Shown piece after piece: positions 62,161-64,000 of a DNA stretch of 64,000 nucleotides (within the stretch, counting starts at the first letter, position 1; the number at the start of each line of letters is the position of its first letter). The DNA is from Escherichia coli. GTDB taxonomy: Bacteria > Pseudomonadota > Gammaproteobacteria > Enterobacterales > Enterobacteriaceae. The stretch lies in NCBI RefSeq assembly GCF_003019035.1, contig NZ_CP027447.1; one strand, 5' to 3'. A model generated the notes under the pieces. It was not told where the DNA came from. It made no database searches and saw nothing but the letters and a program-made list of their open reading frames with translations. The position numbers and the translations under genes are program-made.

Positions 62161-62724
62161 ATGCTCAATGATAATAAAATTCGCACTGCATTAATAAATT
62201 TTTTACTGGCTAAAAAACCAGCGCCAGAAAGGATTATTGAAGAATTGCATATCGAGAACGGAAGAGCAATAGCTGATGTCGTAGCAGCATATAGTTATTT
62301 GCATTGCTACGAGATTAAAGGAGAGACTGATTCAATTGGAAGAATCCTTACTCAAGCTAATTATTATAATACTTCTTTCAACAAAATTACACTTGTAACT
62401 ACAAAAAATCATTTAACATGGGCATTAAAGCGTTCCCCATCCTTCTGGGGAATCATATTAGTAGAATTAAAAGATAATAACATTACTTTCAAATATATAA
62501 GGGGGGCTAAAGATAATATTTTCTTCAGAAAAGAAAATGCTTTCATGATGTTATGGAAGGACGAAATGTTGAAGGTAGCAAATGAAGCCTCTGTACCAGT
62601 TAAAAGATCACACACGAGGATGGAAATAGCCGAAATGCTTAGTAGTTCGCTTAAGAAAAGTGATGCTTTGCAAACTATACAAAGCATCATATCTAATCGA
62701 CTAAAATTAAGGGATGCAGTGTAA
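62161..62724 (+). CDS. Hypothetical protein (187 aa), possible partner of the Beta-protein-like gene
   Basis: ATG at 62161 with GGAGG 5 nt upstream (track ORF starts at 62149); 3' end overlaps the convergent gene by 18 bp. Confidence 0.55.
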   Translation: MLNDNKIRTALINFLLAKKPAPERIIEELHIENGRAIADVVAAYSYLHCYEIKGETDSIGRILTQANYYNTSFNKITLVTTKNHLTWALKRSPSFWGIILVELKDNNITFKYIRGAKDNIFFRKENAFMMLWKDEMLKVANEASVPVKRSHTRMEIAEMLSSSLKKSDALQTIQSIISNRLKLRDAV

Positions 62725-63795
62725 AACAAACTTAATATGTGAAGTCAGCATGGCTTTAATCCAGGATGAGGGATTACCTGCTTTATCTGGTTTTTTAGGC
62801 GAATAACTACTTCTATCATAAACATATTGTTCCCCATATGAGAATGTAGTTGCCCTGAAGAATTTTTGGTCATGGATTATTGTGGCAATATCATAATATT
62901 GACCATTTCCTCTCTCATCATTCTGGAAAGATCCACCTCTAACACAAAACATATTATTCTTATACGTATAAAATACTTTTGGTGCGGAAACTTTTCTAAA
63001 TAGCTTCGGATCTAAATCTATATCAGAATAATCAGGGCTAACAATTCCATAATCCCCGTATATAATATTACCAATTTTCTTTTCGTTAACTAATGTGTCC
63101 CAAATTTTCCACTCCGCTCTCGTGAACGATTTTCTTTGATAGGTTTCAAGTAATGAGGAAATATTAGCCGGTATCGAAGAGGCTGATATAATGCACTTAT
63201 CAAAGTGAAAGTCTTTATTTACATTTAGAATAAAGTATTCAGCCATGTCAGTTAGTCGCTTTATGTCAGTTGGCTGAATGTATCGTAGATCTATAATTAA
63301 GTGCAATTGTTCTACTTTCAGATTTCTAATGATTACCATCATCTTCAAGAGATGCATTTTTGTTATTTTATAGCTCTCAATATCTTCAGCAACTAACCTT
63401 ATGGCTAATTTCCCTCCGTTAATTGATAGGCTATCGTAAACACTTTTATTGTGTTTCTCTAATCGGTTGATACCGATCACAGGAATATATAAGTAATCAC
63501 GAAAAAGAGATAGTATATATTCGTATTGCTCCACTCCATCAATTAATATTTCATCATCCAGGTCATAATTATCTATGTAAAATTCCATGTTTTTAAATAA
63601 AGCTTTATTATCCAATCTCTTTTTGAAAGAATGAGCTTTATTCAATACATTTTCCATTGTTTGATTATTTGATTCTCTTGGTATATCGAAGAATGGAGTG
63701 ATTTGTGTGAAGATTGTAGCATCTTTTTTGTAAAGCTCTTCGAGGGCTTGAGTTTCGTTGCTTTTTGCTTTTAAAAATGGGATATATTTACTCAT
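62707..63795 (-). CDS. Beta-protein-like (sce7725-like) protein, about 362 aa
   Basis: N-terminus MSKYIPFLKAKSNETQALEEL resembles the conserved N-terminus of the Beta_protein family as I recall it; start ATG at 63795 overlaps the stop of the upstream ORF. Confidence 0.5.
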   Translation of the reverse strand: MSKYIPFLKAKSNETQALEELYKKDATIFTQITPFFDIPRESNNQTMENVLNKAHSFKKRLDNKALFKNMEFYIDNYDLDDEILIDGVEQYEYILSLFRDYLYIPVIGINRLEKHNKSVYDSLSINGGKLAIRLVAEDIESYKITKMHLLKMMVIIRNLKVEQLHLIIDLRYIQPTDIKRLTDMAEYFILNVNKDFHFDKCIISASSIPANISSLLETYQRKSFTRAEWKIWDTLVNEKKIGNIIYGDYGIVSPDYSDIDLDPKLFRKVSAPKVFYTYKNNMFCVRGGSFQNDERGNGQYYDIATIIHDQKFFRATTFSYGEQYVYDRSSYSPKKPDKAGNPSSWIKAMLTSHIKFVLHCIP

Positions 63796-64000
63796 TGAAA
63801 CCAAGCTCCCTTCTGACATCAATTGAATTAACTAAACTTGAGAAGATAACATAATTTTTGTGTTTATTTCTTACCGCACCAGCAGCGATTATTGGGTGTA
63901 TATTAAATCTTTCGCAGACAGATATTAGACTATCAGGTTCATTAAATGTCCGAAAGACAGCTCTATTTGCTTCTCTGGGTATCAGACTATCAGCTGCGGC
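63788..64000 (-). CDS. Hypothetical protein, C-terminal 70 aa only (5' end beyond window)
   Basis: Open frame from the window edge ending ...VNSIDVRRELGFNE-stop; its TAA overlaps the downstream ATG (AATGAGTAA), suggesting translational coupling. Confidence 0.4.
   Translation of the reverse strand, partial: AAADSLIPREANRAVFRTFNEPDSLISVCERFNIHPIIAAGAVRNKHKNYVIFSSLVNSIDVRRELGFNE

Follow-up and report, generated by a model that had tools for sequence, protein, structure and literature searches.

The far end of a 64,000-nucleotide stretch of Escherichia coli DNA (assembly GCF_003019035.1, contig NZ_CP027447.1), called the window here at its whole length, raises the question of whether the gene cassette that runs off it is an anti-phage system and, if so, whether it is a new one. 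An earlier note on this DNA had picked out a minus-strand open reading frame (ORF) at 62707..63795 as a Beta-protein-like gene and had proposed it as part of an undescribed system. Our analysis indicates, by analogy with characterized relatives, that the cassette is probably a four-gene, toxin-antitoxin (TA)-like anti-phage unit, an abortive-infection module of the family that includes PD-λ-2 and the gop-β-cII genes of phage P4. This reading rests on homology, on catalytic motifs that are intact, on coupled genes with a convergent neighbour, on the conserved synteny of all four, and on their location on mobile elements. What is new here is the GNAT gene in first position in place of the HigB-like PD-λ-2A, a peptidase that lacks a helix-turn-helix (HTH) domain, and a conserved convergent cII-like gene.

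The four genes of the cassette

The ORF at 62707..63795, designated gene C, begins with an ATG codon and encodes a protein of 362 amino acids with a predicted TIM barrel, the N-terminus of which reads MSKYIPFLKAKSNETQALEEL. The protein matched the Pfam Beta_protein model PF14350 with an E-value of 2.5e-53 over residues 4-358, which covers model positions 1-341 of 342 and thus the full length of the family. The N-terminal signature by which the earlier note had recognized the family proved to be genuine, as Y4, P6, K9, K11, E14 and L21 are invariant or nearly so in an alignment of 47 family sequences. The additional label of sce7725-like was dropped because no NCBIfam family, sce7725 (NF033831) included, matched the 362-residue protein at E <= 0.1. 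Among the PADLOC models, those for PD-Lambda-2_C alone matched gene C (E = 3.6e-47), and the 'beta' model of the P4 type gave no match. Profile searches against solved structures found nothing for Beta; the predicted TIM barrel with its conserved charged residues suggests an enzyme-like protein. The remark that the Beta family has no established mechanism also stands, in that no mechanistic paper was found in the literature for Beta proteins, PD-λ-2 or gop-β-cII.

At the junction with the preceding gene, designated gene B, the minus strand reads TTTCAATGAGTAAATA. The ATG of Beta (63795-63793) lies 8 nucleotides within gene B, which ends with a TAA codon at 63790-63788, so that the overlap between the Beta start and the end of an upstream ORF, as originally described, is confirmed, and that ORF is indeed open to base 64000. 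The window holds the 3′ end of gene B on the minus strand (63788..64000; 70 codons and the stop), and the remainder of this gene and the whole of gene A lie past the window end. Their sequence was supplied by L001, a near-identical locus of E. coli strain S19-651, and the extension that had been recommended therefore recovered two upstream genes, which encode an M78 peptidase (gene B) and a GNAT protein (gene A). Because genes A and B overlap by 11 nucleotides and genes B and C by 8 nucleotides, A, B and C form a three-gene coupled operon; the proposed coupling was thus correct, while the proposed number of two genes was too low.

Gene B encodes a zinc metallopeptidase of the M78 (ImmA/IrrE) family. 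The fragment in the window is identical to the C-terminus of a 282-residue protein encoded at L001 11365-12213, and it matched the PADLOC model PD-Lambda-2_B with an E-value of 6e-9. The full 282-residue protein matched the same model with an E-value of 2.4e-47 and 160 bits, over model positions 175-396 of 402 only. It also matched Pfam Peptidase_M78, with HELSH from residue 178, and the HELxHxxxH motif is invariant in the alignment of this peptidase family. No Pfam match to an HTH domain was found in gene B, and the N-terminal Xre HTH part of the PD-Lambda-2_B model remained unmatched. The PADLOC models RmrA and capP gave E-values of 1e-6 to 1e-9, and the other ImmA-type models scored at most 33 bits.

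Gene A precedes gene B in L001, with an attachment (att) site on one side of it and the M78 peptidase gene on the other, and encodes a 210-residue protein annotated as GNAT. It has the GNAT fold with an acetyl-CoA site, in which the GxG acetyl-CoA loop is intact and Tyr173 is invariant. No PADLOC model matched it at E <= 1, PD-Lambda-2_A and gop included, nor did any in NCBIfam, and profile searches against solved structures returned sub-threshold GNAT matches only. No gene for a ribbon-helix-helix (RHH)/DUF1778 antitoxin adjoins gene A in L001. On one metagenomic contig (L032 1-812), a small ORF lies in front of a distant GNAT gene of the gene A family, overlaps it, and has a weak match to a RelB-like ribbon-helix-helix (E = 0.014). 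This single pair hints that the gene A family also exists as a classic two-gene TA system. Other distant GNATs of the family lie on contigs of less than 1 kb, and their neighbourhoods were uninformative.

The earlier note was right that the cassette is multigenic, and it missed the fourth member, gene D, on the plus strand at 62149..62724 (the start in RefSeq corresponds to position 62161). This gene is convergent with the Beta gene, and the two overlap by 18 nucleotides at their 3′ ends. It encodes an sce7726-type protein that resembles phage P4 cII, and it scored 149.5 bits (E = 9.4e-44) on NCBIfam sce7726 (NF033832), where the curated cutoff is 70 bits, over model positions 1-182 of 184. 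The searches with hidden Markov models (HMMs) that had been suggested for Beta_protein and sce7726 thus found their matches in C and D, respectively. Gene D also matched the PADLOC model 'cll' with an E-value of 7e-23; P4 cII itself scores 376 bits on 'cll', which identifies it as the model of phage P4 cII. Direct comparison with P4 cII by BLASTP gave 25% identity and an E-value of 5e-14. Residues E28, D39, E51 and K53 of gene D, which form an E...D...ExK motif, are invariant in 10 sequences, P4 cII among them. This signature is a hallmark of the PD-(D/E)xK nucleases, and the intact motif in the sequence suggests that gene D may encode a nuclease. Profile searches of solved structures found no solved homologue of gene D and returned only spurious matches to RSV-F. 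A Pfam search with the cII alignment gave no match; precomputed context tables list PF26915 for cII-like genes.

The order of the cassette is thus A-B-C-><-D, with three overlapping co-directional genes and a convergent fourth. Scanning with HMMs built from the four gene alignments found this order in all 21 complete bacterial loci, which are spread over gamma- and betaproteobacteria (Enterobacterales, Pseudomonas, Aeromonas, Halomonas, Cupriavidus, Comamonas and others) and have different flanks, so that conservation across unrelated islands, which had been named as a check, was found. The neighbourhoods of eight Beta homologues, down to 29% identity, contained the same four genes each time between unrelated flanks (Erwinia, Pseudomonas, Aeromonas, Rheinheimera, Comamonas, Undibacterium and a metagenome-assembled genome), and 13 further loci came from a scan of one genome per species in which a narrower Beta alignment was the query. 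The same order was also present in three IMG/VR viral contigs, in one of which the cassette adjoins a CI/LexA-like repressor gene. Pseudocitrobacter faecalis has the cassette with 99% identity. The Beta-><-cII pair was present at every Beta locus examined, and the upstream module varies. Some relatives have defence genes as neighbours: in Yersinia ruckeri (L013 7807-9456), the cassette is followed, some 1.2 kb further downstream, by a retron type I-C RT-Toprim gene (PADLOC E = 1e-196), and an Mrr-like gene neighbours the cassette of one relative.

Relation to PD-λ-2 and to gop-β-cII of phage P4

PD-λ-2 was described in E. coli ECOR42 (QOYB01000002, 229385-232009) and consists of a HigB-like protein A, an Xre-peptidase B and a Beta protein C (Vassallo 2022, PMC9519451). 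In that system, PD-λ-2B alone is toxic and is rescued by PD-λ-2A, PD-λ-2C is needed for defence against λvir, and the phenotype is that of abortive infection (PMC9519451). The cassette studied here is similar in that an M78 peptidase gene is followed by a Beta gene in an overlapping operon, with a small gene of toxin-like fold in front. It differs in that a convergent cII-like gene belongs to the conserved unit, and such a gene is not among the three described components of PD-λ-2.

The second relative is gop-β-cII of satellite phage P4 (Ghisotti 1990, as cited by Rousset 2022, PMC9122126), a trio that protects against λ and P1 (Rousset 2022, PMC9122126) and the cell killing of which is triggered by the phage accessory gene orf184 (bioRxiv 10.1101/2023.04.06.535777). 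In the P4 record X51522, gop and β run in one direction and cII is convergent, so that a Beta-family gene with a convergent cII gene is common to both loci, and gene D is homologous to P4 cII with its catalytic motif kept. BLASTP of gene C Beta against P4 β was not significant, and these two proteins have only the Pfam family in common; the link between the cassette and P4 therefore rests on the Pfam family and on cII. There is no similarity between Gop and gene B, no gop homologue in the cassette, and no match of gene A or gene B to the PADLOC gop model, and Gop itself has no Pfam domain. Conversely, P4 has neither the peptidase nor the GNAT, and gene D lacks the C-terminal extension of about 75 residues found in P4 cII. 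P4 and the island that carries the cassette both integrate at leuX with a P4-type integrase.

The Beta-><-cII backbone is also combined with other upstream modules. Metagenomic contigs carry a DUF6932 gene, an HTH-fused M78 gene and Beta-><-cII beside Kiwa and type I restriction-modification genes; the Acinetobacter plasmid pAC1633-1 carries a DUF6932-like gene, HTH-M78, Beta and sce7726; and a Nostocales genome has a DUF6932-like gene, a separate HTH gene, M78 and Beta-><-cII. These loci have the B-C-><-D backbone and its overlaps in common with the cassette, whereas their first gene is DUF6932 or PDC-M63A-like rather than GNAT, and their HTH domain is either fused to the peptidase or encoded by a separate gene. 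In P4 the upstream module is gop, and in prophage Rac-SA53 and one E. coli plasmid, Beta-><-cII stands without any upstream module. In pAC1633-1 of Acinetobacter baumannii (L026, NZ_CP059301.1; 1854-2054 and 12133-13035), transposon Tn125 with blaNDM-1 is inserted inside the Beta gene, and a carbapenemase transposon has thus disrupted a putative defence cassette. An M78-Beta fusion was also observed in AFDB (U9T9A1, 539 residues, 'IrrE N-terminal-like domain'), and its alignment with the Beta model spans 329 columns; the record is labelled Rhizophagus irregularis, and the sequence may be bacterial within a fungal assembly.

Similarity to other known systems is more limited. RmrA of RosmerTA and CapP of CBASS have the M78 peptidase domain in common with gene B, a weak and domain-limited likeness, but no RmrT or CapH partner is present here and gene B has no HTH. 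Gene A resembles the GNAT toxins of the TacT, AtaT and KacT type in its fold and acetyl-CoA site, but it has no RHH/DUF1778 antitoxin beside it and carries an extra N-terminal region of about 80 residues, and its structural similarity to these toxins is no greater than to GNATs that are not toxins. In summary, judged from its sequence, the cassette joins the B-C part of PD-λ-2 to the β-><-cII layout of P4, with a different first gene.

Transcription signals and the island

A terminator-like hairpin, which has a stem of 12 bp and a T tract behind it, is located on the minus strand at 62661..62689 (folding z = -4.0), 18 nucleotides past the Beta stop codon and within the 3′ coding end of gene D. 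It may serve as a shared or bidirectional terminator, or it may be a sign of antisense interplay. Comparable hairpins were found in Yersinia, in some Pseudomonas loci, in Rac-SA53 and in P4; they are absent from some related loci, and the hairpin was therefore dropped as a feature of the family. Upstream of gene D, a match to a sigma-70-like promoter on the plus strand (62106..62134; TTGACC, 17-nucleotide spacer, TAAAAT) is a match to the consensus only.

The cassette is the far-end cargo of an 11.8-kb island in the tRNA-Leu(CAA) gene leuX (53640..53724, plus strand), and the proposed location on a tRNA-inserted mobile element was borne out. An 18-nucleotide att repeat, which is a copy of the tRNA 3′ end, lies at window positions 53701-53718, and its partner is 11,811 bp away in L001. 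Between the repeats are a tyrosine integrase gene (53914..55161, plus strand; a 415-residue ORF, the L001 homologue of which is annotated as a tyrosine-type recombinase/integrase), a DUF6387 gene, an HTH gene, a replication initiation gene (57165..58013, minus strand; from the RefSeq annotation of the L001 homologue), a MOB relaxase gene (60250..61569, minus strand) and the cassette. The island is called mobilizable because it encodes this relaxase, which is so annotated in RefSeq and which matched the NCBIfam models MobB and TraI_MobP relaxase, both under the curated cutoffs. Two ORFs between the replication gene and the relaxase gene, at 58562-58975 (plus strand, 137 residues) and 59293-59964 (minus strand, 223 residues), are hypothetical proteins in RefSeq.

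The window and L001 are 99.5% identical over the cassette and 96.5% over the whole island. DNA of the cassette region was found in four of 5,426 complete E. coli genomes at 97.8-99.5% identity, and many other E. coli genomes have only the integrase end of the island, at 95% identity. The island looks like a modular element in which the cargo can be exchanged. The flank in the window (idnDOTK, ahr) is that of E. coli, with 99.2% identity. A further island, which has a P4-type integrase of its own, stands in tandem at leuX in L001 (1-10274), past the window end at base 64000. Among its products are a protein of more than 1,400 residues, a HerA-domain helicase and a Ser/Thr kinase, and it may be another defence locus.

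Mechanism, alternative explanations and significance

With moderate confidence, and by analogy with its relatives, the cassette is assigned to a known defence family of the abortive-infection type. The anti-phage context that the earlier note had recognized agrees with this assignment. If the analogy with PD-λ-2 holds, A and B would be a mutually neutralising pair, as PD-λ-2A and PD-λ-2B are, and Beta would couple phage infection to activation, as PD-λ-2C does. On infection, a peptidase switch would release or activate toxic activities, and the infected cell would be aborted. One guess for the toxic activity is that gene A acetylates a component of translation in an acetyl-CoA-dependent manner, and gene D may contribute nucleic-acid cleavage. 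As a joint assignment, A as the effector, B as the switch, C as the sensor and D as an accessory nuclease must be regarded as doubtful.

Several observations weigh against the assignment to this family, or against details of it. No homology to PD-λ-2A, which has the HigB-like RNase fold PF09907, was detectable in the 210-residue GNAT encoded by gene A, and gene B lacks the N-terminal Xre HTH of PD-λ-2B. The published PD-λ-2 clone extends 387 bp beyond gene C, the last gene (PMC9519451), and therefore worked without the whole of any gene that may follow there; for PD-λ-2, if not for its relatives, a cII-like gene of full length may thus not be needed. In the same system the protein with the toxin-like fold is the antidote and the peptidase is the toxic part, and the roles can therefore not be read from the folds. 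Lastly, only one of 10 sampled flanking proteins matched a known defence model.

An addiction or stabilisation module of the TA type, which would keep the island or prophage in its lineage and have no anti-phage role, is the best of the alternatives and is unlikely. The TA-like architecture with overlapping genes and the GNAT fold that gene A has in common with the TacT and AtaT toxins are consistent with addiction, as are the location of the cassette, always on or beside mobile elements, and the one distant GNAT of the gene A family (n = 1) with a small overlapping RelB-like ORF before it. However, homologous sets of B with C and of C with D, cloned outside their elements, gave phage resistance (PMC9519451, PMC9122126). 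Four genes with three enzyme-like components also go beyond what addiction needs, and several genomes have no recognisable mobile element in the approximately 4-6 kb of flank examined.

Less probable than addiction is a truly undescribed defence system, which would have no more than domains in common with PD-λ-2 and gop-β-cII and would work by a different logic. Gene A is unmatched in PADLOC and NCBIfam, gene B is without an HTH, the four genes vary together as one block in all 21 loci, and no paper on a GNAT-M78-Beta-cII system was found in the literature, all of which would be expected of a system of its own. In contrast, three of the four genes are homologous over their full length to parts of two systems that have been published, with the order, the overlaps and the convergent layout kept, and intermediates exist in the form of DUF6932-HTH-M78-Beta-><-cII and of the version with a separate HTH gene. 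The earlier description of the system as undescribed was therefore given up: B and C match PD-Lambda-2_B and PD-Lambda-2_C, D matches the P4 cII model and sce7726, and the parent systems have been published and experimentally validated.

ImmA-ImmR controls excision and transfer in ICEBs1. That the cassette would be an island regulatory module of this kind, with an ImmA-like anti-repressor protease that controls excision or transfer, is very improbable: gene B belongs to the ImmA/IrrE (M78) family and the cassette adjoins the island att site and relaxase gene, but the E. coli island has no gene for an Xre-type repressor next to the cassette, this set of four genes is also found on prophages and between wholly different flanks, and gene B scores 160 bits on PD-Lambda-2_B compared to at most 33 bits on other ImmA-type models. 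All three alternatives are less well supported than an abortive-infection type defence family, because relatives that were cloned away from their elements gave resistance to phage, the cassette is not tied to any single element in its spread, and three of the four genes are homologous over their full length to published components that stand in the same order.

The cassette is an architectural variant of a validated defence family and not a new kind of immunity, and the value of the finding is incremental. Beta is a widespread family without known activity, and both PD-λ-2 and gop-β-cII are validated anti-phage systems without a known mechanism. In the cassette and its relatives, a constant Beta-><-cII core is common to PD-λ-2-like and gop-β-cII loci, and the gene before the peptidase is swappable. 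In PADLOC, the sole library of defence models tested, only B, C and D have matching models and A has none, so that annotation with models of this kind would probably flag the cassette only in part.

A more far-reaching proposal, which we offer tentatively as a possibility with the balance against it, is that Beta and a convergent cII-type PD-(D/E)xK protein are the universal core of one defence superfamily that unites PD-λ-2 and gop-β-cII, and that the front-end modules (Gop, HigB-like, DUF6932 or GNAT, with or without an M78 switch) are interchangeable. If this is true, cII would count among the functional components, as one that has gone unnoticed in PD-λ-2, and the GNAT version would represent a protease-gated acetyltransferase effector in phage defence. 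The cassette is a simpler, HTH-less model system for this family, and it offers catalytic residues for mutation in all four of its proteins.

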